Positions 1-64,000 of a DNA stretch of 64,000 nt are shown piece by piece. Source of the DNA: a virus. The stretch's first letter is position 1. Every line of letters starts with the position of its first letter. The translations under genes were made by a program, and so were the position numbers. The notes below the pieces were generated by a model. It did no database searches, was not told where the DNA came from, and worked only from the letters and a program-made list of their open reading frames with translations. Where the stretch lies: the IMG/VR virus record IMGVR_UViG_3300029451_000002, positions 1 through 64,000 of that record; one strand, given 5' to 3'.

Positions 1-454
1 AGCAAAGGGCATGGAGGATGCCAAGCAGAAAGCAGCGGAATGGCAGGTTGGACAAATGCTCTTGAATTGCGATGATTTCGAGGAGATTGTTATGTTTTTT
101 GGCTCAAAGAAAGAAACTTAAAAAGGAAATGTCAAATGGATAAGAATTTTAGAAGTTGTTTTTGTTGCGTCCATTTCTTGGAAATACAAAATACAAGTAC
201 AGGAAATGTCTTGAAATGCAAGAAAGGTAGCACTACGAAAGTACAAGGGAAGAGACTGACAGAAATTGCTGCAAGGTGCAAAAACTACAAAGCGTAAGGC
301 ACACGTTAAAGAACATAGTAAGACGAAATTAAGGATAAAGGTGATAGTAGAAAGAGTGTTTGAGAAAGAGAAAAATGTAAAAAGTTTAAAATAAATGGTA
401 GAAACTATATTAAACAATTAAAATACATTAATAAAATAAAGAAACACATTAAAA

Positions 455-490
455 TGCTTGCATGTTTTGAATATTCTTTGTATCTTTGCA
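455..490 (+). promoter_or_regulatory. Bacteroidetes-type promoter (-33 TTTG / -7 TATCTTTG) heading the 552.. operon
   Basis: TTTG in ttgcatgttttg at 456-470; TATCTTTG at 481-488 matches the TAnnTTTG -7 consensus. Confidence 0.6.
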
Positions 491-525
491 TTGCAATTAA
501 GAAATAAAGGTTATTAATTTGAAAA

Positions 526-538
526 GGTGAGACACACC
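526..538 (+). promoter_or_regulatory. Conserved leader motif GGTGAGACACACC (copy 1)
   Basis: The same 13-mer sits about 30 nt after the -7 box at 5 operon starts; small hairpin ggtg-agaca-cacc. Confidence 0.5.
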
Positions 539-551
539 ATAAAAACTGGGA

Positions 552-5479: not shown

Positions 5480-5524
5480 TAGTAATCGTAGAAATCCATA
5501 ATGCTATTTTGTTTTAAATGTTTG

Positions 5525-5566
5525 CCCCATCACTATATATAATAATGTAGTGGTGGGGATTTTTGT
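5525..5566 (+). terminator. Rho-independent terminator (hairpin ccccatcacta/tagtggtgggg plus T-run)
   Basis: An 11-bp stem followed by ATTTTTGTGTT; identical copy at 48357-48397. Confidence 0.65.
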
Positions 5567-5639
5567 GTTAACGTCAGTAAATTATTGGTGTTATGTGTTA
5601 TGATATATTAAAGAATAAAAGAAACACATTAAAAAGTTT

Positions 5640-5718
5640 GCATATTTCAGATATTCTTTGTATCTTTGCAATGTAATTAAGAAACAAGGTTACTAATTTT
5701 AAAAAGGTGAGACACACC
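5640..5718 (+). promoter_or_regulatory. Promoter (TATCTTTG at 5661-5668) plus conserved leader motif (5706-5718)
   Basis: Near-identical to the cassettes at 455-538, 26270-26347 and 48470-48549. Confidence 0.6.
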
Positions 5719-5738
5719 ATAAAAACTGTAAGAAGAAA

Positions 5739-5999
5739 GTGGAAAAGAATAATGTTTATGTAGAGGTGTTGGCAAAGATTGCCAGCCTCATGGGTAGAAC
5801 AAAGGAGTCTATCCAGATGTCGTCTTCAAATACTCATACGAGTATTACGATGTTTGCTGAAAATAATAGCAAGATTATTGGAAATTGGTATTTTGATGCT
5901 TCCGATAGCAAGGAGTTGGTGGATGCTACTTTCAATGGTCTGAAGGCTTTGGTTGAGTCTCTTGAGCACAATAAGAGCAATGACGGACAAGCAGCGTAA
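5739..5999 (+). CDS. hypothetical protein
   Basis: First ORF after the cassette (GTG start in the track). Confidence 0.4.
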   Translation: MEKNNVYVEVLAKIASLMGRTKESIQMSSSNTHTSITMFAENNSKIIGNWYFDASDSKELVDATFNGLKALVESLEHNKSNDGQAA

Positions 6000-9644: not shown

Positions 9645-9825
9645 TATGCTGCAAAGATAGCTTATTTTTTTTTAACTGCCAAAGAAAAAGAGTTAAATAT
9701 TAGAATTAGCTAATAATTAGTGAATAAATGTTTAGAAATAGCTTATAAGTGTTAAATAAGTGATAATATTAGAAATTTCTTATAGAAATATTTGGTAATA
9801 TTAGAAAAAACTACTATCTTTGCAA
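9645..9825. promoter_or_regulatory. Divergent promoter region (minus-strand TATCTTTG at 9652-9659; plus-strand at 9815-9822)
   Basis: Two opposed TAnnTTTG boxes in an AT-rich gap. Confidence 0.55.
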
Positions 9826-9910
9826 TGTCTTTAAGAGATAAAGGCTTTAAAGTTTAACTATTAATTGCTGCTATGCAGCCGAGTCGGCACTCGTAAAACG
9901 GTTTGAGGAT

Positions 9911-10249
9911 ATGACTACTTCAATTAAGAACAAGATGAGAAAGGTAATGCAGTTAGCACATAGAGCCTATCAGTTGAAATCAAGTTCAATGTCTTGGGTT
10001 GAGTGCTTGAAACAGGCTTGGCAGGTTGTAAAGCTTGAGTCAGCGATGAAGACCAAGGTAGTAGAGTTCTTCTTTATGAAGATGAATGGTGAGGTAAGAC
10101 AAGCCTTTGGTACTCTCCTTCAGAGCCACATTGACTATACTCCAAATGGTACAGGGCATGCAGCATCAAGAGATTGCATCCGCTATTGGGATGAAGCAAA
10201 GGGCGCATGGAGACAATTCAAGGCTTACAACTTCTTGCGAGTTGCATAA
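9911..10249 (+). CDS. hypothetical protein, paralog A
   Basis: About 65% identical to 15109..15444(-). Confidence 0.55.
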   Translation: MTTSIKNKMRKVMQLAHRAYQLKSSSMSWVECLKQAWQVVKLESAMKTKVVEFFFMKMNGEVRQAFGTLLQSHIDYTPNGTGHAASRDCIRYWDEAKGAWRQFKAYNFLRVA

Positions 10250-13955: not shown

Positions 13956-14415
13956 TTCTTTATTCTATTTATAATTAAAATTAAACTTTGGTCGTAAGGA
14001 AAAACGGAAAAGCCTCATCCGTCATATTGTAAGAGTGGACGGACAAGGCTTGTGTCATTCGCCCATTATATTGAGGCGATGGGCAGAATGACGATACTCC
14101 ACGCTTGGAGTGAAAATGAAAATATTTAATTTTAAATTATAATCTATATCCTTGTTGGTCGCACTCTTACCTTACAACCGTTATCATTTTCGGTTGCAAA
14201 GTTAATGCTTTTCTCTTTAACTTGCAAACGTTTTAGTGTTTTATCCAAAACCTTAACGTTTGTTTTACTTTGGAGGACTTCTGCCCTCGCCAGCACGACC
14301 AGCTATCGTGGCACGTTGTTGCACATTACTTCTTCTTTCCATTGCTCACGGAATTTAATAGTTAAACATCAAAGATAATGTGCAGTTGTTCAGGTGTGCC
14401 TCACCTTGTATATTG

Positions 14416-14715
14416 TTACGCTACCATTGATAGCATTTCATTAGATTGCATCTGAATCCATTGACAAGCATCCTTGCGGAAAAAGATGTCAGAATCGAAC
14501 CGCTTGCCATCCACAATGATGTGGCTACCCTTGCACTCGAACTTGTGGTTTCGGGTCAATGGTATCAAAAGGTATGTATCACCCTCTTTCTTGTCGTACA
14601 CAAGCGTCAAATCCGTGCCGATAACCTGTGATACCACCTTGCGCTCATCTGAGCTTAAAACGCCAATCTTGCCATCATGCTCAACGTAAAGAGCATCCAT
14701 CAAATTCTTATCCAT
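14416..14715 (-). CDS. hypothetical protein, paralog B' (the track ORF extends to 14787 from an alternative start)
   Basis: Aligns to 10884..11192 from MDKNLMDALYVEH; leader-like GTGAGGCACAC at 14754-14764 lies upstream of this Met. Confidence 0.5.
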   Translation of the reverse strand: MDKNLMDALYVEHDGKIGVLSSDERKVVSQVIGTDLTLVYDKKEGDTYLLIPLTRNHKFECKGSHIIVDGKRFDSDIFFRKDACQWIQMQSNEMLSMVA

Positions 14716-14776
14716 ATCTCTTAAATGTTTAATGTTCAAAGTCCGGTGCAGTTTAGCGTGTGCCTCACGAAATCTA

Positions 14777-15478: not shown

Positions 15479-15661
15479 TTACTTTGCAAGTCCGATGCTC
15501 TCACGCAAGAAGCTCTTGGCCTCATCGTTGTTCATATTGAGCTTAGTTGTTATCATATTCAACATTCTATCAACGTCCTTTTGGGTGTTTATCCTGTTGC
15601 TTACGAACTCTATCATAACGAACTTCTGAATCAAGTTTCTTCTTATCATTGAAGTAGTCAT
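15479..15661 (-). CDS. small hypothetical protein
   Basis: First ORF after the minus-strand promoter. Confidence 0.35.
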   Translation of the reverse strand: MTTSMIRRNLIQKFVMIEFVSNRINTQKDVDRMLNMITTKLNMNNDEAKSFLRESIGLAK

Positions 15662-15744
15662 ATTGCTATACCGTTTTACGAGTGCCGACTCGGAGGTGCA
15701 ACCTCAGCTAAATTAATAATGTTATTGTGACCTTTCTTTCTTAA

Positions 15745-15925
15745 TCACGATGCAAAGATACTAAGTTTTATCCTAACTACCAAATATTTTATTAAGTTTT
15801 ATCCTAACTTTAACCTTCGTTTGCTGATTTAATATACAAATTAAGATATGTTTGCATTGTTAGGTTAAAAACTTAGTTTTTCATAATAAGTTTGGCAGTT
15901 TGCGAAAATATGTGTATCTTTGCAA
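15745..15925. promoter_or_regulatory. Divergent promoter region (minus-strand TATCTTTG at about 15753-15760; plus-strand at 15915-15922)
   Basis: Mirror image of the 9645-9825 region. Confidence 0.55.
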
Positions 15926-17407: not shown

Positions 17408-17534
17408 TTAATTGAGGTTAATATAACAAAAAAGTTATCCTTTTATTTGCATATATAACAAAAAAGTTATATATTTGCATTGTCTTAAGGACAAAAGAGG
17501 TCTTTTACTTATTTATTAATTTCTTCTATTATAT

Positions 17535-18383: not shown

Positions 18384-21300
18384 ATGGCAGAATTAAGATT
18401 CGATGTCAAAGCGAATTTCGAGGAGGTTACGAAACTTCGTTCCGAGTGTGAAAAGTTGAGGGCTGAGTTGTTGAAGACCAATAAGTCAACCGACCCAGCT
18501 ATTGTTGCGGATTTGACGGAAAAATATGCGGATGCTAGCAATCGCTTAAAGGATTTAACGCAAGCAGCTTCAAGAGCCGCTTACGTGATGTCTTCTGAGT
18601 TTAATAAGAAGATGCAAGCAGCCGCAAGGGAAGTTTATAGCTATGAACTTCAAATGCAAGCTACCAAAGACCGAATAGAGAAAATCCAACAGCAAATCAC
18701 GAATAAGAGATTAACTCTAGGAGTTACAACGGATAAGTCATCCATAGATTCTTTACAGAAGAATATTGACTATTTAAAAGGCTCTTTGGCAGGTCAAACA
18801 GCTCAGTTGAAGAACTTAGAAGGAGGTGCTGTCGGTGCTCGTCAGACCTTGGAGAATATGCGAAATGAGTATGTTTTGTATGCAGGTTCAGCAAATCCGG
18901 CAAAAGAGGCAACAAATATGTTGACCGATAGCATGAGCCAAATGATAGAACGTATGAAGTCCGCTCCAACTGCCGGAGAGGGTGTGTCTAGCTTGTTCCA
19001 AAGAGTTACTGGCGATGCTCACATGCTTTCGGCAACATTACTTGGTGGTTTAGGATTTGAACAATTAACACGTAGCGTTTTTAATACTCGTTCCCAATTC
19101 CAACAACTTGAAATATCTTTCAATACCATGCTTGGTAGTGCGGATAAGTCCAAACAATTGATGGACGAACTTATCCAAACAGCAGCTCATACACCTTTCG
19201 ATATGTCCAGCATTACGGGTGGCGCAAAACAACTTTTAGCATACGGTACGGAAGCGAAAGATGTTAACAAAACCCTTGTCCAGCTTGGTGACATTGCTTC
19301 GGGCTTGAATATTCCGCTTGGAGACCTTGTTTATCTTTATGGAACGACCGTCTCGCAAGGAAGAATGTTTACAATGGACTTGCGTCAGTTCATGGGCAGA
19401 GGTGTCCCATTAGCAGAAGAATTGGGTAAAATCTTACACCAAAACACAACGGAGGTTCAAGAGTCTGTTTCCAAGGGTAAAGTGACATCAGACATCTTCA
19501 AAGAAGCTATCGCCAACATGACGCAAGCAGGTGGACGCTTCGGAGGCTTGATGGAACAACAATCAAAGACATTGGAGGGTCAGTGGAGTAACATTGGCGA
19601 TTCCATCCAGCAAGCGTTCAATGAAATCGGCAAAAAATCCGAGGGCGTGTTCTCTAGTGGATTGTCAATTATTTCTGCTATGGTAGAGAATTGGCAAGAG
19701 GTAATAAAAGTTATTGGTGTAGCTACAATAGCCGTTGGCTCTTATCGTGCATCATTAATGGCGGCTGCTTCTATTCGCAAAGCTGAGGAAGCGCAACAAG
19801 CCGATGATATGATGAAGGGAATTGATGCAGAAATCAAGCGTTTGCAAGACCTAGAGAACTCAAACTACAAGTCGCTGGGTAAGGACAAAAAGCAAGAGCG
19901 AGTAAGCAAACAACAAGACTTGGCAAGTATTGTTGGAGATACTGCTGTGTCCGATGATTTTGTAAAGGCAAGATTAGATGCAGCAGAGCAAGAGGGCATT
20001 ATTACGGAACAAATGCGTTCTCAATTAGAGATGAAACGTGAACTCTTGCAGGCTCAGCAACAAGCAACAGCACAAAGCCAGATAGAACTTGATGAAGAAA
20101 AGAGGAAGACCGAGGAACTTCGTCAACAAAAAATAGAGTCTCTTAAAGATGATTTGAAGACTACTACGGAGAAAATATCAAATCTTGATGATAGGGATGT
20201 AGAGTTGGCTAGACAATATACATCAGCCTTGAATGATTTGCAAGATGCCCAAGATGCCTTTGCTGAGGCTCAAAAATTGGTTGAGGAAACCGCTGATGGT
20301 GCAAACTTGGCTTTTGACTCCGAGGGTAATGCCGTGAACGCACTAGAAGCAAAGGAACGTTTAGCAACCGCTGCGAAGAAAGTGAATATTGCTCAAACAA
20401 ATGTTTCAACAATTGCAAGTCAGCAAAGAGGAGCTGCGCTTATTCGTGAGCAATTACAAGAGAGACAAGCAACACTACAAACGCAGTTGAATTCTGTTAG
20501 TCAAGCTACCAATACGACTACGAAAAAGGCTAGTACTTTAGCTACGGCTGCTTCAACTGTAAAAAATGCCATCCATACCGCAAGTGTTAAAATAATGACA
20601 ACTGCTGAATTAATGCTTAGTAATGCGGTAAAATCTACAACTATGGCTTTAAAGGGAATGTGGGCTGCTATGCTCGCAAATCCGATTACTGGTATTATAA
20701 CATTGGTAACAACGCTTGCTAGTGCCGTTGCTATGTTCGGAGGTGAAGAGGAAGATATTTCTGTTGACACTAAGCATTTTGGAGATTCTGCTGAAAACAC
20801 AAGGGCGAAAGTTGATGGTTTGCTTAACGTAATGAAGTCTTCTAAGGAAGGAACTGATGCTTACAACAAAGCTAAAGAAGAACTTATCCAAACCTACGAG
20901 CAGTTTGGGATTAAGTGTGATGCCGAAAAGGATAATTTAACAACACTTAAAGGCAAGCATGATGAATTTCTTGCAACTTTACAATTGGAGAATGCTGAAA
21001 GAGAAAAGGCTAATGCTTTAATGTCTGCCACTTCCCAATACACAGAAGCAAGAAACAAAGAAGATGACAATTTTAGCAAAGACTTATCCGGTCATTGGTA
21101 TCAAGGTGGGCAACATGTAGATAAGGAAGATATAACATCAATACAAATGATGTATAATTCCATAGCAACAGATGAGGTTTTAGATAGGTTGGCTAAGTTG
21201 AAGCAAAGAGTAGATGATAGCACATTGTCTTACAAGGAGCATATAGATGCTTTTAATATTTACACAAATGCAGTTAAAAAGACATTTGCGCCTATTGATG

Positions 21301-24300
21301 CGTTCTTAGAAAAACAACATTACAATATAGCGACTATAGAGAATACTGACCATTCGATATTGGAGCATACGAGTAATCTTGCAAAATTAAAGACAAGTTA
21401 TAAAAACGCAGAGGATGCGATAATGAAGGCGGCTGCTGAAAATGTAGATTGGAATAATACACAGGCTAGGTCACAATGGGTAGCTCAGCAAAATAAACAA
21501 AGCATAGATGCCTTAACTTCCTCAACAGACCAGCTTATTTCTATATGGAATCAGGAATATGGATTAAATTTAAAAATCCATTATGATGATACAGAAATTC
21601 CAAGTTGGATGAAATCTTTAACGGATAAACAGTTGCAATCTTTGATTAATAGACGTAAGGCAGATTTAAATAGGCAAGAGCAATACCGAACAAATCATAA
21701 AGGAAGTAAATTGCTGACAAAGCAAGGAAATCAGCTAAGAGACGAAAATGCCAATAGGCTTGATGTTGCTATGGCTGGTTCTATTCTGAAAGATAGAGAG
21801 GCGAAAAGAAAAGCCGATGCAAATAAGCCGAAGGAAACGACAAAGAAAACTACACCAAAGAAAACAGGTGCAACGGATAACCCACAAGCAAGAGCGTATG
21901 AACGCAAGAAGGCTGAGGAGGACTATTTCAAGTCTATTTCATCCTATTCGGAGAAAGCTATCCAAGACATGACCAAGAACCGCATCAATGCGATGAATGA
22001 GGGTTATAACAAGGAGTTGGCTCAGATAACCGAGAATGCCGACAAGGAGAGAAAGGCGGTAGAAGAAGGTATAGACAAATTGGTTGAGGCTAGAAAAAAA
22101 CGTGACCAAGCTGTTTGGGTTAATTCCGGCAAGGGTCGTAAGGCTAATATGTGGAAACAGAGCAAAACCGATGAAGAGTATAAGAATGAGGTTTTGAATG
22201 AAACCATGAAGGATAGCAAGGGTAATCCGGTTAAGGTCAATGGCATGAATATGACCATAGGCATGAGCGTTGCTAATCAGATGAATGCAATTCGGGATAA
22301 GGCGGTAAAGCAGAATGAGGATGTACTTGCTAAAGAAGCGCAAAGCATGTACGATTATCTGAAGACTTATGGCACATTCCAGGAGCAGAAGTTAGCTATT
22401 GCTGCCGATTATGCTAAGAGGATTAGCGAGGTAGAAAACTCTACGGATTCGGACTCAAGCAAGCAATGGAAGATAAAGTCTTTGAAAGAAGAGCAGAAGA
22501 AAGAGGCGGATTCGGTTGAGGCTAGTGCTATTATGCAGAAGATAGACTGGTATCAAGTCTTCGGAAATGTTGGGGGCATTATGAAGGATGCGCTTGTTCC
22601 TTTATTAGCAGATCTGGATAAGTTCGTAGGTACGGATAAGTTCCAAAATTTGGGAGCAGACCAGCAGAAGAATATCGTTGATGCTATGCAGAATATCCGT
22701 AATTCGATTGGTAATACAAGTGATTTAGGTTGGAAAGACCTTGCAAGGGACGTTGTAGCTTATCAAGAGGCTCTGAAGAATGCGAAAATTGCTCAAGATG
22801 AATATACGGAAACGGAAACCAAGCTTATACCTCGCATTAAGGATTTACAAAATCAGATAGCGAATGCGAAAAAGTCGGGTAATGTTGCTGAGCAAACAAG
22901 GCTACAAGAAGACTTGAATAAAGTTCAAGGCCAGTTAGCGGAGTCCGGAAAGAAGATTGTTACGGCTAACACAAAAGTTCGTACTAGTGGTCAGAAGTTG
23001 GCTCTAACGACACAGAATGTGACGCAACCGATTTCCGCTATCCATGAGTTCCTTTCAAATTCCGGATTATCTGATTTGGAAGCTCTTTGGGATAGTTTCG
23101 ATCAACTTAAAGGTGGAATTGACGGATTGAAAGCTTTGAGTGAGGCTAAGAAAGCGGCAGATGGTCTGAAGGATATGGGCAAGGAAGCCGCAGATGCAGC
23201 CGCAGATGCTGGAAAGGATGCAGGAAAAGCTCTAAGCGAAGGATTATCACAAGCTGGATTTATAGGTCAAATCGTATCTGCCATCTTGAAGATACTTGAT
23301 GTTTTGAAAGATGGTATTGGAACTTTGATTAGCAACCTTCTTGACACTGTTTTTAATGCTATAAGTGGAATCTTGAAGAATATCCTAAGTGGTGATTTTA
23401 TTACACAGATAGGAGGGTCTTTGATAAGCGGTATTGGTAATATTCTCAATACAATATCGTTTGGTGGCTTCAATAGTTTGTTTGGAGTTGGTGGAAACGC
23501 AAAAGAAGTAAACCAGACTATAGACAAATTGACGGATAGAAATGAAATCTTGACGGATGCTATAGACAAGTTACGAGACTCCATAGACAAGAATAGTGGT
23601 ATTAAAGCCGTAGAGGATGCGCAAAAAGCCGAAAACCTTCAAAAGGAGAAAGAGCAAAATCTAAAGAGTATCATGGAGGCGCAAATGGGTTATCATGGCT
23701 CTCATCACAGTTTTAACGCTTATTTTCGAGGATTTTCGCAAGAGCAAATCAAAAAGGTGTCCGATGCAATAGGCAGACAATGGAATGGTAATCTTAACGA
23801 CTTGCAATCTGCTGATGAAGCAGCTGCCATTTTGCAGAATCCAGATGTTGTTGAGGCTATCAAGAATACAGGTAAGGGTGGCTATGGAGATAGAGTTCTT
23901 GAAAAGTTGAAAGACTATGCGGCTGAGGCAGGAACATTAGAGGATATTGCTGATGACCTTGCAGAAAGTTTGACACAAATATCTTTCGATAGTTTGAAGA
24001 GCGAGTTCGTAGATACTTTGATGGATATGAATTCCTCTGCTCAGGACTTCTCCGATAATTTCTCCAAGATGCTTATGCAAGCTGTTCTGAAAGCGAAGGT
24101 AGATGATTTGTTGGGTAATGATATGCAAGCATTCTATGATGAGTGGACGGAACGAGCTAAGGCAAATGGCGGCAAATTGTCTAAGACGGATATAACTGCC
24201 TTGAAGGAAAAGTATGATGAAATGGTTCAAGAAGGACTGAAGATTAGAGATGAAGTAGCCGAAATTACGGGTTACAAGCAATCTTACGAGCAGTCCGCTT

Positions 24301-24659
24301 CTTCCGGTTCTTTTGAATCAATGAGTCAAGACACAGGCGATGAGTTGAATGGTCGTTTTACAGCGGTGCAGATCGCTACGGAGGGAACGTATGAGGAAAC
24401 AAAACTCATAAATACCAAGTTGGATGCTATTGCTGCTCGTGATGGTGGTACAGAGGGTAGCTTGTTGACGGCTAGCGTGAATACTATTATGGGTAATGTA
24501 GGCAATATTTGGTTAGCCGTTGATGAGGGAAGAACTATTCTTGCCCAAAGTCTGATGTACTTGCAGTCGATTGATGAGCGACAAGAGCGATGGCATAAGC
24601 CTATGTTGCAAGCATTCAATGATATACACGAATTGAAAGATAAAATGAGTAGATTGTAA
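18384..24659 (+). CDS. Tail tape measure protein (2091 aa)
   Basis: Coiled-coil-rich giant ORF; TMP core-like segment GTEAKDVNKTLVQLGDIASGLNIPLGDLVYLYGTTVSQGRMFTMDLRQFMGRGVPLAEELGK; hydrophobic segments. Confidence 0.6.
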   Translation: MAELRFDVKANFEEVTKLRSECEKLRAELLKTNKSTDPAIVADLTEKYADASNRLKDLTQAASRAAYVMSSEFNKKMQAAAREVYSYELQMQATKDRIEKIQQQITNKRLTLGVTTDKSSIDSLQKNIDYLKGSLAGQTAQLKNLEGGAVGARQTLENMRNEYVLYAGSANPAKEATNMLTDSMSQMIERMKSAPTAGEGVSSLFQRVTGDAHMLSATLLGGLGFEQLTRSVFNTRSQFQQLEISFNTMLGSADKSKQLMDELIQTAAHTPFDMSSITGGAKQLLAYGTEAKDVNKTLVQLGDIASGLNIPLGDLVYLYGTTVSQGRMFTMDLRQFMGRGVPLAEELGKILHQNTTEVQESVSKGKVTSDIFKEAIANMTQAGGRFGGLMEQQSKTLEGQWSNIGDSIQQAFNEIGKKSEGVFSSGLSIISAMVENWQEVIKVIGVATIAVGSYRASLMAAASIRKAEEAQQADDMMKGIDAEIKRLQDLENSNYKSLGKDKKQERVSKQQDLASIVGDTAVSDDFVKARLDAAEQEGIITEQMRSQLEMKRELLQAQQQATAQSQIELDEEKRKTEELRQQKIESLKDDLKTTTEKISNLDDRDVELARQYTSALNDLQDAQDAFAEAQKLVEETADGANLAFDSEGNAVNALEAKERLATAAKKVNIAQTNVSTIASQQRGAALIREQLQERQATLQTQLNSVSQATNTTTKKASTLATAASTVKNAIHTASVKIMTTAELMLSNAVKSTTMALKGMWAAMLANPITGIITLVTTLASAVAMFGGEEEDISVDTKHFGDSAENTRAKVDGLLNVMKSSKEGTDAYNKAKEELIQTYEQFGIKCDAEKDNLTTLKGKHDEFLATLQLENAEREKANALMSATSQYTEARNKEDDNFSKDLSGHWYQGGQHVDKEDITSIQMMYNSIATDEVLDRLAKLKQRVDDSTLSYKEHIDAFNIYTNAVKKTFAPIDAFLEKQHYNIATIENTDHSILEHTSNLAKLKTSYKNAEDAIMKAAAENVDWNNTQARSQWVAQQNKQSIDALTSSTDQLISIWNQEYGLNLKIHYDDTEIPSWMKSLTDKQLQSLINRRKADLNRQEQYRTNHKGSKLLTKQGNQLRDENANRLDVAMAGSILKDREAKRKADANKPKETTKKTTPKKTGATDNPQARAYERKKAEEDYFKSISSYSEKAIQDMTKNRINAMNEGYNKELAQITENADKERKAVEEGIDKLVEARKKRDQAVWVNSGKGRKANMWKQSKTDEEYKNEVLNETMKDSKGNPVKVNGMNMTIGMSVANQMNAIRDKAVKQNEDVLAKEAQSMYDYLKTYGTFQEQKLAIAADYAKRISEVENSTDSDSSKQWKIKSLKEEQKKEADSVEASAIMQKIDWYQVFGNVGGIMKDALVPLLADLDKFVGTDKFQNLGADQQKNIVDAMQNIRNSIGNTSDLGWKDLARDVVAYQEALKNAKIAQDEYTETETKLIPRIKDLQNQIANAKKSGNVAEQTRLQEDLNKVQGQLAESGKKIVTANTKVRTSGQKLALTTQNVTQPISAIHEFLSNSGLSDLEALWDSFDQLKGGIDGLKALSEAKKAADGLKDMGKEAADAAADAGKDAGKALSEGLSQAGFIGQIVSAILKILDVLKDGIGTLISNLLDTVFNAISGILKNILSGDFITQIGGSLISGIGNILNTISFGGFNSLFGVGGNAKEVNQTIDKLTDRNEILTDAIDKLRDSIDKNSGIKAVEDAQKAENLQKEKEQNLKSIMEAQMGYHGSHHSFNAYFRGFSQEQIKKVSDAIGRQWNGNLNDLQSADEAAAILQNPDVVEAIKNTGKGGYGDRVLEKLKDYAAEAGTLEDIADDLAESLTQISFDSLKSEFVDTLMDMNSSAQDFSDNFSKMLMQAVLKAKVDDLLGNDMQAFYDEWTERAKANGGKLSKTDITALKEKYDEMVQEGLKIRDEVAEITGYKQSYEQSASSGSFESMSQDTGDELNGRFTAVQIATEGTYEETKLINTKLDAIAARDGGTEGSLLTASVNTIMGNVGNIWLAVDEGRTILAQSLMYLQSIDERQERWHKPMLQAFNDIHELKDKMSRL

Positions 24660-26211: not shown

Positions 26212-26269
26212 TTTTGTGCCTACATATATAATAAGCGTTAAAATATAAAAGAAATACATTAAATAATTT

Positions 26270-26347
26270 GCATGTTTCAAATATTCTTTGTATCTTTGCA
26301 TCGTAATTAAGAAACAAGGTTACTAATTTTAAAAGGTGAGACACACC
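26270..26347 (+). promoter_or_regulatory. Promoter (TATCTTTG at 26291-26298) plus conserved leader motif (26335-26347)
   Basis: Cassette copy 3. Confidence 0.6.
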
Positions 26348-26366: not shown

Positions 26367-26588
26367 ATGAATACTAGATTGAGTAAGAAAGAGACAATGG
26401 TTTATGGCAACATCGGAGTGATGGCTGACGTAATCGGAGGTAATAAGTACTTCACTTTTGCAGATTTGTATGATTTCGATTTGGATAATACCAAGGATGA
26501 GTTGAAAGAAATATTAAACTCTTTGACCGAGAAAGGTTACTTAAAGAGTTTTAATGATTTCGATAAAACTTATCGAGTTTTGAAGTAA
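26367..26588 (+). CDS. hypothetical protein
   Basis: ATG about 20 nt after the leader motif. Confidence 0.5.
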   Translation: MNTRLSKKETMVYGNIGVMADVIGGNKYFTFADLYDFDLDNTKDELKEILNSLTEKGYLKSFNDFDKTYRVLK

Positions 26589-26753
26589 GAACACAAAGGG
26601 GATCCAAAATCCCCTTATAATATAAATTAAGAACGTGAGACACACGTAAAACTGTATTGAAAAAATGAAAAAGGTATTCACGATTGAGAATGCATTAACG
26701 CTTTTGTTTGCTCTTGAAATAGTATCATTAATATTTTTTCTAGGATAGGGCTT

Positions 26754-47239: not shown

Positions 47240-47626
47240 ATGAAAAAAGAAGATAGACTTAAAATATATCGCAAATACGATGGGCATTGTGCTTATTGCG
47301 GCAAGAGTATAGAGTATAAGGATATGCAGGTTGACCATCTTGTTCCGAAGAATCGAGGTTGTTACTCTCGGTGGAGCGACAAGGAGGGAAAGTTTGTCGT
47401 ATCCCATGGCGATGAATCCATGGAGAACTATATGCCATCTTGCAGGTCTTGTAATCTTCGTAAGCGTGATATGAGTTTGGAACAATTTCGCTCAGAGATT
47501 ACTAGACAGGCTAAAGGATTGCTTAATGGTAAGGCTTCTTTCCAAGTAAAGATGTCGCTTGCTTATGGTTTAATCGAAGAGCACTTTGATAGACAAATTG
47601 AGTTCTACTTTGAGAAATTTAAATAG
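47240..47626 (+). CDS. HNH endonuclease (free-standing, homing-type), copy 1
   Basis: DGHCAYCG...QVDHLVPKNRG...NYMPSCRSCN; about 70% identical to 55752..56165. Confidence 0.75.
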   Translation: MKKEDRLKIYRKYDGHCAYCGKSIEYKDMQVDHLVPKNRGCYSRWSDKEGKFVVSHGDESMENYMPSCRSCNLRKRDMSLEQFRSEITRQAKGLLNGKASFQVKMSLAYGLIEEHFDRQIEFYFEKFK

Positions 47627-48326: not shown

Positions 48327-48397
48327 CCCAAAGGCAAAATACCCTTTGGTGTTTACCCCATCACTATATATAATAATGTAGTGGTGGGGATTTTTGT
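48327..48397 (+). terminator. Tandem terminator hairpins (cccaaagg...cctttgg; ccccatcacta...tagtggtgggg plus T-run)
   Basis: Second hairpin identical to 5525-5566. Confidence 0.65.
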
Positions 48398-48469
48398 GTT
48401 AACGTCAGCAAATTATTTGTTTGTATTATTATAGAGTGTTAAAAGCTATAAGAAATACATTAAATAACT

Positions 48470-48549
48470 TGCATATTTCGAATATTCTTTGTATCTTTGC
48501 AATGTAATTAAGAAACAAGGTTACTAATTTTAAAAAGGTGAGACACACC
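48470..48549 (+). promoter_or_regulatory. Promoter (TATCTTTG at 48492-48499) plus conserved leader motif (48537-48549)
   Basis: Cassette copy 4. Confidence 0.6.
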
Positions 48550-48569
48550 ATAAAAACTGTAAGAAGAAA

Positions 48570-48944
48570 ATGAAAAAGTTTTTTGAAAACTTATCTGAAA
48601 AGATTGAAGATGCGGCTTTTGAGGCGCAGCTTGATGATTTTACTTGCGAGTTTGATGCTATTAACAAACCAGCCGAAATCGTAGTGTCTGTTAAGAGTAG
48701 AAAGGTTATTCATTCAAATGGAAACGTTTCTTCTTATCCATATTACAATGTAGATAAGATTAATATCTATGATGAAGACGGAAAAGACGTTTCTTCAAAA
48801 TATCCTTTGTTCTGCCAAAGAGTTAAGGATTGCGTGCCTTCTTATAAAGGTGTTGAGAATGACTTGACGGAGGCAAATATGAGCGATACCGAGCTTTATT
48901 TCGGCTCAGAGGCTAATTATTTGCATTACAAGTATGGTAACTAA
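48570..48944 (+). CDS. hypothetical protein
   Basis: ATG 20 nt after the leader motif. Confidence 0.5.
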   Translation: MKKFFENLSEKIEDAAFEAQLDDFTCEFDAINKPAEIVVSVKSRKVIHSNGNVSSYPYYNVDKINIYDEDGKDVSSKYPLFCQRVKDCVPSYKGVENDLTEANMSDTELYFGSEANYLHYKYGN

Positions 48945-55493: not shown

Positions 55494-55786
55494 AGATTAG
55501 ACTAGCAAAGAAGATAATGAAGCAAGCTCGTCATCTAAGTACGGCAAGTGATTATTGGTACAGAAGATTAAGAGATTTTGAGTACAAAATATGCTATGGC
55601 TTTGTTGGTAAAAAAGACCACCGCATCACCAAGGCGATAAGTTTAACAAGTAAAAAGAGAAAAATGAGAATAAAAGATACTGACACTTTTGTGGATTTAA
55701 GTAAAGAAGATAAGGATGCTTTAGATACTTGGGCACATTATTGTAAACAACATGAAGGTTATGAAAGAAATGAAGAAGGAAACTAG
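55490..55786 (+). CDS. hypothetical protein
   Basis: ATG ORF. Confidence 0.4.
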   Translation: MKIRLAKKIMKQARHLSTASDYWYRRLRDFEYKICYGFVGKKDHRITKAISLTSKKRKMRIKDTDTFVDLSKEDKDALDTWAHYCKQHEGYERNEEGN

Positions 55787-56165
55787 ACTAAAGGTATATC
55801 GTATGTATGATGGTCATTGTGCCTATTGTGGCAGGACTATAGAGTACAAGGATATGCAAGTAGACCATATTGTTCCCAAAAACAGAGGAATGTATTCCAG
55901 ATGGGATGAGAAACAAGGCAAGTTCGCAGTAACTCAAGGCGAGGATAGCTTAGAGAACTATATGCCAGCTTGCCGTGCTTGTAACTTCCGTAAGAGGGAT
56001 ATGACCTTAGAACAGTTCAGAGCAGAAATAAAGAGGCAGGCGGTTGGCTTGCTAAGTGGCACTGCCAAGTTTCAAATGAAGATGAGTATTGCCTATGGTC
56101 TTATTATTCCTCAGTTCGATAAGAAGGTAGTGTTTTATTTTGAGAAAGTTAAACGTAAAGATTAA
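55752..56165 (+). CDS. HNH endonuclease (free-standing, homing-type), copy 2
   Basis: Paralog of 47240..47626; sits immediately upstream of rtcB. Confidence 0.75.
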   Translation: MKVMKEMKKETRLKVYRMYDGHCAYCGRTIEYKDMQVDHIVPKNRGMYSRWDEKQGKFAVTQGEDSLENYMPACRACNFRKRDMTLEQFRAEIKRQAVGLLSGTAKFQMKMSIAYGLIIPQFDKKVVFYFEKVKRKD

Positions 56166-62667: not shown

Positions 62668-63840
62668 TTAAAAGAATGTATTTGTTAATTGTTTATTTCC
62701 ACTCATTATTACCCACTTTCCTTTGCCGTTTAGGTCTAGCAATTTCAAGTCTTCAACTTTCCCGAACCTCTCATAAGTACCGCAGAGGTCAACAAACCAA
62801 GGTCGTTTCCCTTTTGATAGTCTAAGAAGTCTTCCTACGACTTGATAGTATTGCGCTAATGAACGTGTTGGCTTTGCATACACGACCGTATCTAACTCCG
62901 GATAGTCAAAACCTACGACCAATATTTGACTATTTACCAATACCTTAGTCTGACCATTACGGAAACGCTCGATGATTGCTTCACGTTCTTTCGGTGGTGT
63001 CTCGCCACAGACCATTTCGCAGTTAGGTATGGAATAGGTCAGTTTCTGAGCCTCCTTAACGAACTTCGTAAAAACCAAGATACCTTTACGCTGTCCACCT
63101 CGTTTAGGATTAAGCAATCTTTTAACAACACTAACTAGCCATCCGTACAAATCTACACGTTCATATTCTTGCTTGACACTTTGATCAGTGTAATCACGGC
63201 AAGTTGAATTGAGCTGCAAGTTTCCTTCGTTCCATTGTGGTGGTGGGCATGTGTAATAGTTCGGAAGACAGATATATCCGTTCTTTGCCATATCCTCAAC
63301 TTGAACATAGTAAATAAGCTCCTTGAAAATCTTGTCTCTACTTCTTGTCAGAAACTTCAGTATGCTACCATAGTTCTGATAGGAATACAGACGGAAAGGT
63401 GTTGCGGTTAAACCTATGACCTTGCTCTTTAATTTATCAAGAAACTCCTTATACATGCCGGATTCAGGTTTCACTAAATGAACCTCATCAATCAATATGT
63501 ATTTGAAGTCAGTAAACAATTCGGGATGTCCTTTCACGCTACCAATTGTAGCAAAAGTAACATCGCTGATTTCTTTTGATTTAAAGCTAGCGGAATAGAT
63601 GCTGGCATTATCAAATCCATAAGAACAATACTTCTTGTAGTTTTGTTCCAAAATTTCCTTAGTAGGAGAGAACACAAGCACTTTATCCTTGAGCCTAGCA
63701 GCTATATCTGCCAAAATCAATGATTTGCCCGATGCAGTAGGGAGCACTTCCAGAGCGTTCCAATTTTTCTTTTCATCCAAGAAAAACTCAACTGCCTTCT
63801 TGCTTGCTTCTTCTTGATATGGTCTTAATTTAAACTTCAT
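62668..63840 (-). CDS. SF2 DEAD/DEAH-box DNA helicase
   Basis: Motif I PTASGKS, motif II DEVH, motif III TATP, motif VI QVVGRLLR. Confidence 0.8.
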   Translation of the reverse strand: MKFKLRPYQEEASKKAVEFFLDEKKNWNALEVLPTASGKSLILADIAARLKDKVLVFSPTKEILEQNYKKYCSYGFDNASIYSASFKSKEISDVTFATIGSVKGHPELFTDFKYILIDEVHLVKPESGMYKEFLDKLKSKVIGLTATPFRLYSYQNYGSILKFLTRSRDKIFKELIYYVQVEDMAKNGYICLPNYYTCPPPQWNEGNLQLNSTCRDYTDQSVKQEYERVDLYGWLVSVVKRLLNPKRGGQRKGILVFTKFVKEAQKLTYSIPNCEMVCGETPPKEREAIIERFRNGQTKVLVNSQILVVGFDYPELDTVVYAKPTRSLAQYYQVVGRLLRLSKGKRPWFVDLCGTYERFGKVEDLKLLDLNGKGKWVIMSGNKQLTNTFF

Positions 63841-63990: not shown

Positions 63991-64000
63991 AACAATTTAG

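Follow-up and report, generated by a model that had tools for sequence, protein, structure and literature searches.

The 64,000-nucleotide (nt) stretch of DNA analysed here, positions 1 to 64,000 of IMG/VR virus record IMGVR_UViG_3300029451_000002 and referred to below as the window, has a G+C content of 38% and originates from a large siphovirus-like phage of the human gut. A first-pass annotation had described in it a recurrent cassette at operon starts, consisting of a terminator hairpin, a promoter and a conserved leader with the 13-mer GGTGAGACACACC. The subject of this analysis is that leader element. As read from the sequence, the real unit is larger than the 13-mer and spans 23 nt, comprising a small hairpin followed by (N)UAAAAACUG, with the shorter tail forms UAAAACUG or UAAAACGG also present. 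The unit is a cis-acting leader hairpin and, with its A-rich tail, an apparently undescribed one: no Rfam family matched it, either in the window at gathering thresholds or in region 5480-5800, where nothing relevant was found at E values up to 10. The motif was not described in the literature reached by topic searches, and a search with the exact sequence gave only unrelated primers.

Cassettes and leader units in the window

The exact 13-mer is present five times, with four plus-strand copies (526-538, 5706-5718, 26335-26347 and 48537-48549) and one minus-strand copy (63950-63938). When up to two mismatches are tolerated, the count rises to nine, compared to 0.63 expected from shuffled sequences, and none of 100 shuffles reaches nine. 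A covariance model built from eleven instances recovers eight clear window copies, as well as a weak one at the end of the Rha gene. The features are as follows, with covariance-model scores in bits.

Cassette 1, promoter, plus strand: upstream block AAGAAACACATTAA at 439-452, -33 box TTGCAT at 458, -7 box TATCTTTGCA at 481-490
Cassette 1, unit, plus strand: GGUG-agaca-CACC at 526-538 and tail AUAAAAACUG at 539-548; 43.4 bits
Cassette 1, gene, plus strand: start at 555 (552 is also an ATG; the ATG at 555 is kept in relatives), 102-103 amino acids (aa)
Cassette 2, intrinsic terminator of the preceding operon, plus strand: 5525-5568, a 14-pair hairpin at 5525-5558 and then ATTTTTGTGT
Cassette 2, promoter, plus strand: upstream block at 5619-5632, -33 box TTTGCA at 5637, -7 box TATCTTTGCA at 5661-5670
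Cassette 2, unit, plus strand: hairpin at 5706-5718 and tail at 5719-5728; 47.9 bits; GTG at 5739, 86 aa
Cassette 3, promoter, plus strand: upstream block at 26249-26262, -33 box at 26267, -7 box at 26291-26300
Cassette 3, unit, plus strand: hairpin at 26335-26347 and tail GUAAAAACUG to 26357; 44.9 bits; ATG at 26367, 73 aa
Intercistronic unit, plus strand: 26634-26654, CGUG-agaca-CACG and UAAAACUG; 35.5 bits; ATG at 26665, hydrophobic open reading frame (ORF) of 27 aa
Cassette 4, terminator, plus strand: 48356-48399, identical to the 5525-5558 copy, plus a T-tract
Cassette 4, promoter, plus strand: upstream block at 48450-48463, -33 box at 48469, -7 box at 48492-48501
Cassette 4, unit, plus strand: hairpin and tail at 48537-48559; 47.9 bits; ATG at 48570, 124 aa
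Cassette 5, promoter, minus strand: -33 box TTTGCA at 63992, -7 box TACCTTTGCA at 63968-63959
Cassette 5, unit, minus strand: hairpin at 63950-63938 and tail at 63937-63928; 39.3 bits; helicase ATG at 63840
Intercistronic variant, minus strand: 14769-14749, CGUG-aggca-CACG and CUAAACUG; 28.1 bits
Variant, minus strand: 14405-14383, GGUG-aggca-CACC and UGAACAACUG; 36 bits
Variant or relic, minus strand: 13091-13069, GGUG-agaca-CACU (with a G-U pair) and AGGACAACUG; 20.5 bits
Type-2 unit, plus strand: 9880-9901, CGAGU-cggc-ACUCG and UAAAACGG; -7 box at 9815-9822, ATG at 9911
Type-2 unit, same sequence, minus strand: 15692-15671; -7 box at 15760-15753, ATG at 15661
Expanded variant in the amidoligase leader, plus strand: 33100-33139, GGUG-agagcga-CACC, GGG-guaaga-CCC and then GAAACAACUAG; ATG at 33151, 11 nt later

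The recurrence of the cassette holds, with true dispersed repeats around the exact 13-mer copies. Segments 5519-5747 and 48350-48578 (repeat D5) are 89% identical over 229 nt, and repeat D1 has four copies of 148 nt with 63-80% identity. The earlier description of the copies as near-identical thus applies to the 23-nt core and to the 5520/48355 pair, but not elsewhere. The identical terminator reported for two of the copies is present as a 34-nt hairpin, CCCCATCACTATATATAATAATGTAGTGGTGGGG, followed by ATTTTTGTGT, at 5525-5558 and 48356-48389, and is absent from the remaining three cassettes. A -33/-7 promoter, TT(T)GCA-N19-20-TA(T/C)CTTTGCA, lies upstream of all five exact copies, as had been proposed. 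The same consensus precedes both type-2 copies and is found 15 times in the window; an A/T-rich conserved block, AAGAAAYACATTAA, further upstream is common to four of the cassette copies. In Bacteroidota, the sigma-A consensus comprises a -33 element TTTG and a -7 element TAnnTTTG, spaced by about 19-21 nt, and the predicted cassette promoter is a canonical, near-consensus representative of it. The cassettes are operon-start modules in which, in two copies, the intrinsic terminator of the previous operon is followed by a promoter and the conserved leader. Promoters at 17470, 34913 and 40486, located before the tape-measure, major-capsid and adjacent gene blocks, lack the leader unit, which is confined to non-structural operons.

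The variants at 26634 and 33100 exist as had been claimed; the former follows a terminator-like hairpin (~26598-26618) that is itself located after the 73-aa ORF, and the amidoligase leader has a promoter with a degenerate -7 box, TATCTTCA (33044-33051). Three other variants are also real, but their positions had to be corrected. The one placed at 14754 is CGTGAGGCACACG at 14769-14757 on the minus strand; it starts 7 nt past the stop codon of ORF 15076-14777, and the next ATG is at 14715. The one placed at 14394 is GGTGAGGCACACC at 14405-14393 on the minus strand, 10 nt past the stop codon of ORF 14715-14416 and without a convincing downstream gene. The copy at the end of Rha does overlap the G-E-T-H-stop codons, although it is GGTGAGACACAC-T at 13091-13079 on the minus strand, with the terminal pair formed by G and U; it extends over the end of the Rha/ANT coding sequence, stop codon included, and a terminator-like hairpin then follows. 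The type-2 hairpin, CGAGUcggcACUCG-UAAAACGG, which had been missed, precedes two paralogous small genes (9911 and 15661).

Both type-2 leaders, at 9815 (plus strand) and 15760 (minus strand), precede paralogous genes starting with MTTS and belong to divergent promoter pairs, 9659(-)/9815(+) and 15760(-)/15915(+), in regions 9650-9901 and 15671-15924. The hairpin located directly 5' of the type-2 hairpin differs in sequence between the two and keeps its pairing (GCUGC-uau-GCAGC versus GAGGU-ugc-ACCUC). The first ~20 transcribed bases, AUUAAGAAA(C/U)AA(A)GG, are kept between cassettes (for example, at 5661-5690), in the type-2 leaders, and in a different phage group whose contigs were binned with a 'Waltera' metagenome-assembled genome (MAG), and may be regarded as a second conserved leader element. 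Immediately 5' of the promoter-less unit at 26634 is the sequence AAUUAAGAA (26620-26633).

Stem covariation, distribution and placement of the unit

Seven different stems of the unit all pair, and the stem-loop of 4 base pairs (bp) with a 5-nt loop that had been proposed for the 13-mer is therefore supported. In the set of nine distinct stems scored for covariation, 100% of the cells pair, with three of the four pairs changing on both sides; the covariation score is 0.875 compared to 0.171 in shuffles, is not reached by any of 500 shuffles, and collapses in slid registers. A scan of viral contigs with GTGAGACACACNNTAAAAACTG, in which the base before the pattern was left unspecified, returned at least 118 stretches. 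Among the matches listed, the base 5' of the pattern pairs with the base after the core in 94 of 94 unique viral instances (GGUG..CACC or CGUG..CACG), and the same pairing is present in all 33 genomic instances. Two relaxed scans each forbade the usual base at one stem position, with pairing not required. When stem position 3 was not T, five unique matches were obtained, three of them with fully compensated stems (CGAG..CUCG, GCGG..CCGC, and UAAG..CUUA); the other two are unpaired and lie in unrelated contexts. The scan in which the closing pair was not G gave only unpaired, chance-like matches, and thus the closing G-C pair and the AGACA loop appear to be fixed. The predicted hairpin of the unit would then be 4-5 bp long, with a stem that can change as long as pairing is kept, closed by a fixed G-C pair and carrying a fixed AGACA or AGGCA loop. 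Whole leaders fold no better than shuffled sequences.

On the minus strand of locus L234 (686-735), two tandem units, with stems GCGG..CCGC and AGUG..CACU, are 27 nt apart. They directly follow a tRNA-like 3' end (GGTTCGACTCCCACC), and an ATG is found 14 nt past the second unit.

Exact matches to the unit are found in 33 stretches of bacterial genome assemblies, in addition to the viral contigs. Many of the genomic copies are in Alistipes, where the unit precedes the gene of a ParB_N protein and then an ArdC anti-restriction gene. Copies in Hoylesella and Segatella adjoin Mob_Pre and type IV coupling protein genes, one copy is part of a Prevotella island with amidoligase, SNF2, PAPS-reductase/DUF3440 and ParB, and another belongs to a Prevotella multiformis prophage. 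One chromosomal copy, in a Bacteroidales MAG, is located ahead of cysS, with purE and purL as neighbours. The unit is thus not specific to the phage of the window but is present in many gut Bacteroidales phages, in Alistipes and Prevotella conjugative or mobilisable elements, and before one cysS gene. Within the flanks available for comparison, the only families common to these loci and to the window phage are amidoligase together with two weak ORF matches (Prevotella locus L150) and one weak match (L129). Because the flanks have so little in common with the window phage, any partner that the unit may have is more likely to be a conserved host component than a protein belonging to one element.

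In several Alistipes loci (L123, L131, L124, L128 and others), the putative promoter is flanked on both sides by the arms of an inverted repeat, ~20-60 nt upstream of the unit. From one species to another the arms differ in a compensated manner (CCTGCAC...GTGCAGG, ATGCA...TGCAT, and TTGCGCAAT...ATTGTGCGG), and the repeat could serve the ParB-ArdC operon as an operator or as a leader structure.

The first-pass annotation had named conservation of the -7 box without the leader in related phages as an observation that would speak against it. A scan with the single helicase protein, intended for distant orthologues, returned only relatives at 97-100% identity, which were used for a constraint profile. 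In 49 distinct helicase leaders the 23-mer is invariant, and the variable positions are those upstream of the -33 box, in a patch just after the unit, and at synonymous sites; the leader is therefore kept along with the -7 box. The part of the helicase leader 3' of the unit (63927-63841, minus strand) is also almost invariant in these relatives. Within it are a predicted long hairpin (~63908-63861; the region folds at about -18 kcal/mol) and a mini-ORF of nine codons, MHKTCAFLY, which make this leader a candidate for an attenuator, a leader peptide or a small RNA.

The unit is placed relative to the start codon rather than to the promoter. It always has the same strand direction as the downstream gene, with no antisense case seen among 283 regex-selected paired instances in an informal tally. 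The downstream proteins belong to 32 unrelated families, in 22 of which the modal distance from CUG to the start codon is 8, 9 or 10 nt. Several apparent spacings of 2-4 nt (Alistipes elements, cysS) are due to false upstream ATGs, the real ones being 8-9 nt, and after correction the spacing of 8-10 nt is found in about 25-26 of the 32 families. The spacer sequences between CUG and the start are unrelated to one another. In the window, the spacing is 6 nt for the start at 555, 9 nt at 26367, and 10 nt at 5739, 48570 and 26665 (the GTG at 5739 is an ATG in the paralogous cassette); type-2 units keep a spacing of 9-10 nt, which is 9 nt in both window copies. The copy at 14769 is an exception, with 33 nt to the next ATG. 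With this spacing, the hairpin ends on its 3' side at about -17 to -21, and the A-run falls at about -13 to -17.

Distances to the promoter are far less uniform. From the -7 box to the hairpin they are 10, 36-37, 48 and 57-60 nt in the window, and range from ~16 to 46 nt in other elements; those of the type-2 units are 57 nt (9880 copy) and 60 nt (15692 copy). A position of the leader about 30 nt past the promoter, as given previously, does not agree with these values, since in four copies the hairpin begins 36-37 nt past the -7 box, and in the minus-strand copy 10 nt past it. For the start codons, previously put at 15-95 nt past the leader, the distance from the 13-mer is 16-20 nt at 555, 5739, 26367 and 48570, and 97 nt for the helicase. 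Promoter-less units are found directly after the stop codon of the preceding gene in loci L021, L030 and L091, as well as at 26634 and 14769 in the window.

Gene setting of the phage

Among the structural genes of the window are the following.

18384-24659: tape measure, an ORF of 2091 aa
36289-37377: major capsid gene

Other annotated genes encode RtcB, Thy1, several methylases, Rha/ANT, HicA and HU, and the Pfam families also include WYL_2 (Sm-like fold) proteins and Cro/C1-type helix-turn-helix (HTH) genes. The five tRNA genes represent the sole Rfam families above gathering thresholds. One of them, at 32260-32334, was assigned by ARAGORN an unassignable four-base anticodon (tggt) in an 8-nt anticodon loop, CUUGGUAA, and scores 57 bits as an Rfam tRNA; it could be a quadruplet-decoding or frameshift-suppressor tRNA, or its loop could be mis-called. 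A direct repeat of 300 nt with 71% identity (47240-47539 and 55770-56069) lies inside coding sequence, probably indicating paralogous genes in the 48.5-57.4 kb early block.

In relatives that extend past the right end of the window (L250, 4030-9803), the gene of an S24-peptidase CI-like repressor is divergent from a unit-led gene of 93 aa, and the operon continues after the latter with Rad52-like, DUF3127, DUF4494 and NinG genes. Because the CI-like repressor is divergent from an early operon with Rad52-like and NinG genes, the phage looks temperate, with a lambdoid immunity and early-right layout. The cassette matched no named phage isolate and no plasmid, and the only GenBank phage records that match are fecal phage fragments lacking annotation. 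Binning placed contigs of the same phage with Segatella copri MAGs, and one phage protein is indexed in 11,666 blocks of the assembly collection, making this a very common lineage. Some relatives have an IS605 OrfB/TnpB gene (Cas12f-like TNB) inserted in the first early operon (L478, 12711-13847). Weak covariance-model matches (~22 bits) located 16 nt upstream of the TnpB gene in L028, L037, L061, L075 and L098 probably belong to the insertion element and not to the leader unit.

Interpretation of the unit and its significance

Three functions had been offered for the conserved leader, namely loading of antitermination factors, binding of a phage transcription factor, and translational control. 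The last of them fits best, because the distance to the start codon is kept at 8-10 nt across unrelated gene families. The constancy of this distance despite unrelated spacers, and the existence of intercistronic copies, suggest that the role of the unit is tied to translation initiation. Bacteroidia initiate without Shine-Dalgarno pairing, and their initiation regions are A-rich at -14 to -11 and low in structure from -20 to +20 (Baez et al. 2019, PMC6847099). Like these regions, the unit has an A-rich, presumably single-stranded tract upstream of the AUG, and its predicted hairpin is at the 5' border of the ribosome footprint; it differs from them in that its A-run is 2-3 nt further upstream, CUG and the loop appear fixed, and it is found almost wholly on mobile elements. 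The 3' edge of the hairpin (-17 to -21) coincides with the 5' border of the unstructured zone or falls slightly within it, and in 100 genes of the window phage without the motif the A peak is at -14 to -12. The placement of the A-run and of the hairpin at the footprint border, taken with the A-rich determinant of Bacteroidia, ranks Shine-Dalgarno-independent initiation as most likely. We tentatively propose, with a probability of about 0.4, that the unit is an RNA element tied to such initiation and read by host machinery.

According to this proposal, the unit in the mRNA would form part of an initiation region devoid of a Shine-Dalgarno sequence. Its A-tract would be held single-stranded in the position of the A-rich determinant of Bacteroidia mRNAs, which presumably is where bS1 makes contact, with the hairpin just outside the zone of ~-20 to +20 that must stay unstructured. 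The hairpin would probably be read by a conserved host component, such as the 30S platform, bS1 or another host RNA-binding protein, and the outcome would be immediate, context-independent expression of early genes from incoming mobile DNA. The unit may also have some part in defining or stabilising mRNA ends. A partner at the level of the host is suggested by the occurrence of the unit in unrelated elements, with ParB_N-ArdC in Alistipes, with Mob_Pre and type IV coupling protein genes in Hoylesella and Segatella, and before cysS. Promoter and ribosome-binding-site modules derived from phages out-express native Bacteroides modules. The structured leader of E. coli rpsA, which lacks a Shine-Dalgarno sequence, reportedly combines fixed-loop hairpins with A/U-rich linkers and supports highly efficient initiation (Boni and co-workers).

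Several observations weigh against an initiation role. The A-run of the unit is 2-3 nt upstream of the usual A peak and overlaps it only in part, with C-U-G at -12 to -10, where ordinary genes favour A. A generic role in initiation leaves the near-invariant loop (AGACA or AGGCA), the closing pair and CUG unaccounted for. It also does not account for the helicase copy, in which CUG is 87 nt from the AUG and yet the unit is invariant, or for the copies at 14405 and 13091, located at gene 3' ends with no gene to serve. The hairpin is weak (-2.1 to -3.6 kcal/mol) and is present in the minimum-free-energy fold of four of six folded type-1 leaders, and hence it is not a simple thermodynamic insulator. 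Finally, the nine stems used for covariation were hand-picked from scan hits rather than sampled blindly, and the transcription starts are placed solely by the promoter consensus. We can speculate, at rather low odds, that the unit is a dedicated signal for ribosome recruitment or coupling in bacteria unable to use Shine-Dalgarno pairing. Either the AGACA hairpin, closed by G-C, would dock on the 30S platform or bS1 with the A-tract in the bS1 zone, or RNA polymerase would pause at CUG, 10 nt ahead of the AUG, and a NusG-family factor loaded at this point would pass the emerging start codon on to the first ribosome. Such a signal would have arisen by convergence in, or spread by exchange among, the phages and conjugative elements of several Bacteroidales families, giving them early gene expression without delay and protecting them against Rho in the new host.

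The competing explanation that survives best, possible although doubtful, is that of a transcription-elongation signal. RNA polymerase would pause at C-U|G ~10 nt past the nascent hairpin, a factor (a NusG paralog or an N-like protein) would be loaded, and elongation would become resistant to terminators or Rho. The layout of a hairpin, 9-10 nt, and Y-G, the latter invariant in the unit as U|G or C|G, resembles a hairpin-stabilised pause, and the fixed loop and stem sequences would suit protein recognition. Terminator-like hairpins follow some of the units, at ~26598-26618 after the 73-aa ORF and in the helicase leader, and the large distance of the helicase copy from its AUG suits a role at the transcript level. 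The phage itself appears temperate and lambdoid-like (S24 CI-like repressor, NinG, Rha/ANT), and mobile DNA is the typical client of anti-Rho devices, as is established for RfaH and for F tra operons. The opsX sites of B. fragilis comprise a pause hairpin and a pause, and those of class 2 place the start codon at +9 relative to the pause, near the +10/+11 found here (PMC11685472). The hairpin of opsX acts in the nascent RNA and its pause is at Y-G, to which the Y-G of the unit is a putative counterpart; class-2 sites are 9 nt before the start. The ops element of RfaH and opsX of UpxY (Saba et al. 2024, PMC11685472), as well as the LoaP leader hairpin, are likewise leader signals on horizontally acquired or accessory operons.

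The resemblance is incomplete at points that define these systems. The consensus pause of ops is G-10 ... Y-1 G+1, whereas position -10 of the putative pause is C in the main (GGUG) form of the unit and G only in some of the CGUG forms, and the distance from the hairpin to CUG varies from 8 to 10 nt. Genes adjoining the unit did not include a cognate NusG paralog. A phmmer search with E. coli NusG and RfaH, of limited sensitivity, gave no NGN/KOW match among the ORFs of at least 70 aa in the ~1.3 Mb of sequence covered, and no NusG family was present in the Pfam results for the window (25 of 43 families listed) and its flanks of ~20 kb. Elongation control does not need a start distance that is kept across unrelated genes and spacers. 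Systems of the ops/opsX type have one site per promoter-proximal leader and one regulator gene, whereas the unit is also intercistronic (26335/26634), tandem (the copies 27 nt apart in L234) and at gene ends, and serves dozens of unrelated genes.

The related analogy to lambdoid nut sites, raised in the first-pass annotation, is also weakened. Like nut, the unit has a hairpin of 13-15 nt with a five-base loop, located in early-operon leaders of a temperate phage and adjoining a conserved linear element. In nut, however, boxB has a 5-bp stem and a GNRA-like G...A pentaloop (GAAAA or GACAA), compared to the 4-5 bp and the AGACA or AGGCA loop, closed by G-C, of the unit. The linear element of the unit follows the hairpin, and its tail UAAAAACUG is unlike Bacteroidota boxA, GTTCTTTGAAA, which does not occur in the transcribed leader; the cassette has a single TTCTTTG, located upstream of the -7 box and therefore not transcribed. 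Other differences from nut are the fixed distance to the start codon and the presence of units between cistrons and at gene ends. As conjugative elements of other genera and the chromosomal cysS also have the unit, a phage-specific N-like partner is unlikely; no N-like protein was identified, and sequence alone cannot show one. Mimicry of an rrn antitermination leader was rejected, since GTTCTTTGAAA is the boxA of 59 of 106 rrn leaders (metagenome rrn loci L252-L371) and the hairpin is absent from all 106. In these rrn leaders GTTCTTTGAAA is often followed ~20-30 nt later by AAGTAGTACAAG.

Less probable still is that an RNA-binding protein or endoribonuclease of the element itself uses the unit as an operator or processing site, on the models of T4 RegA/RegB and of Csy4-like cleavage. 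Early mRNAs would in this way be silenced or trimmed, and their 5' leaders made uniform. RNA operators bound by proteins are typically small hairpins whose loop and closing pair are fixed, and a protein bound at this site, inside the initiation region, would block the ribosome. The confinement of the unit to non-structural operons, with the promoters at 17470, 34913 and 40486 free of it, agrees with such an operator, the copies at gene 3' ends (13091 and 14405) fit sites that form or protect 3' ends after cleavage in the A-tract, and the phage encodes WYL_2 proteins and HicA. What makes this unlikely is that the same loop and tail are present in unrelated phages, in Rikenellaceae and Prevotellaceae conjugative elements, and at cysS, with no common element-encoded protein seen in the available flanks and no candidate protein linked to the unit.

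Recombination has to be considered separately. In T4-type phages, promoter-early stem-loops (PeSLs), modules of a terminator and an early promoter, lie at the boundaries of small variable genes, where modular exchange has been proposed to take place (Arbiol et al. 2010; Comeau et al. 2014; PMC2839356, PMC4122927). The cassette as a whole resembles these modules. The leader unit falls short of nut and ops in several of the features that define them. The likeness consists in identical terminators at 5525-5558 and 48356-48389, each followed by a host-type promoter and repeated in the genome. The differences are the Bacteroidota -33/-7 promoter, the siphovirus-like temperate phage, and a structured leader unit tied to the start codon, which is not described for PeSLs. 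The same leader precedes different genes in relatives, several of which are missing from the window, as may happen at an exchange boundary of the PeSL type; exchange itself is only a candidate, and dispersed cassettes as recombination substrates are plausible by analogy with the PeSL precedent.

It is a further step, and an improbable one, to ascribe the conservation mainly to recombination, that is, to a mobile terminator-promoter module spread by gene conversion in which the 23-mer has no RNA function of its own. Such a view draws on the terminator and early-type promoter repeated at operon boundaries with 89% identity over 229 nt (5519-5747 versus 48350-48578), on the same cassette ahead of different small genes both in one genome and in relatives, on the relic copy at the 3' end of Rha, and on the PeSL precedent (PMC2839356, PMC4122927). 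Homogenisation, however, yields neither compensatory changes in stems nor a fixed distance to the start across unrelated spacers, and it leaves unexplained why the unit persists by itself in leaders of other genera that are unrelated in all other respects. Recombination could operate alongside the other explanations and does not compete with them.

A double-stranded DNA operator, with a dimeric protein bound to the inverted repeat GGTG-N5-CACC just past the promoter, would also have co-varying symmetric half-sites and could draw on the Cro/C1-type HTH genes, but it is very improbable in view of the strict orientation with the gene, the asymmetric conserved loop with a 10-nt tail on one side only, the variable distance to the promoter, the positions between cistrons, the G-U pair in the 13091 copy, and the presence of the unit in unrelated elements and at cysS. 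A binding site for a phage transcription factor, another of the functions offered earlier, is unlikely for the same reasons of sharing with conjugative elements and cysS and of strict strand orientation.

Some other candidates were rejected. No gene for an RNA polymerase, a sigma factor or a giant virion RNA polymerase was seen that would go with a phage RNA polymerase promoter, including a hairpin promoter of the N4 type, and the ORF of 2091 aa is the tape measure; since canonical host promoters precede both the structural blocks and the early operons, host RNA polymerase plausibly transcribes the whole window. Pairing of GGUG with the 3' end of 16S rRNA, in the manner of a Shine-Dalgarno sequence, disagrees with the equally good CGAG, GCGG and UAAG stems and with an AUG ~30 nt away. 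Mimicry of the anticodon arm recognised by CysRS, suggested by the cysS copy and by GCA in AGGCA, does not fit the 7-nt loop CUGCAAA, and the cysS copy itself has AGACA. Neither a start-stop mini-ORF (CUG and then a stop) nor a second, 5'-proximal leader hairpin is conserved or shows compensatory changes.

The unit is a handle on how Bacteroidia choose start codons without Shine-Dalgarno pairing, and on how incoming mobile DNA gains expression in these dominant gut bacteria. Its strengths in this respect are its compact size of 23 nt, its definition by covariation and its fixed position relative to the start codon, as well as its presence both in a very abundant lineage of gut phages and in conjugative elements with anti-restriction genes. 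It could become a portable expression part for the engineering of Bacteroides and Prevotella, and could mark islands of early or anti-defence genes in metagenomes.

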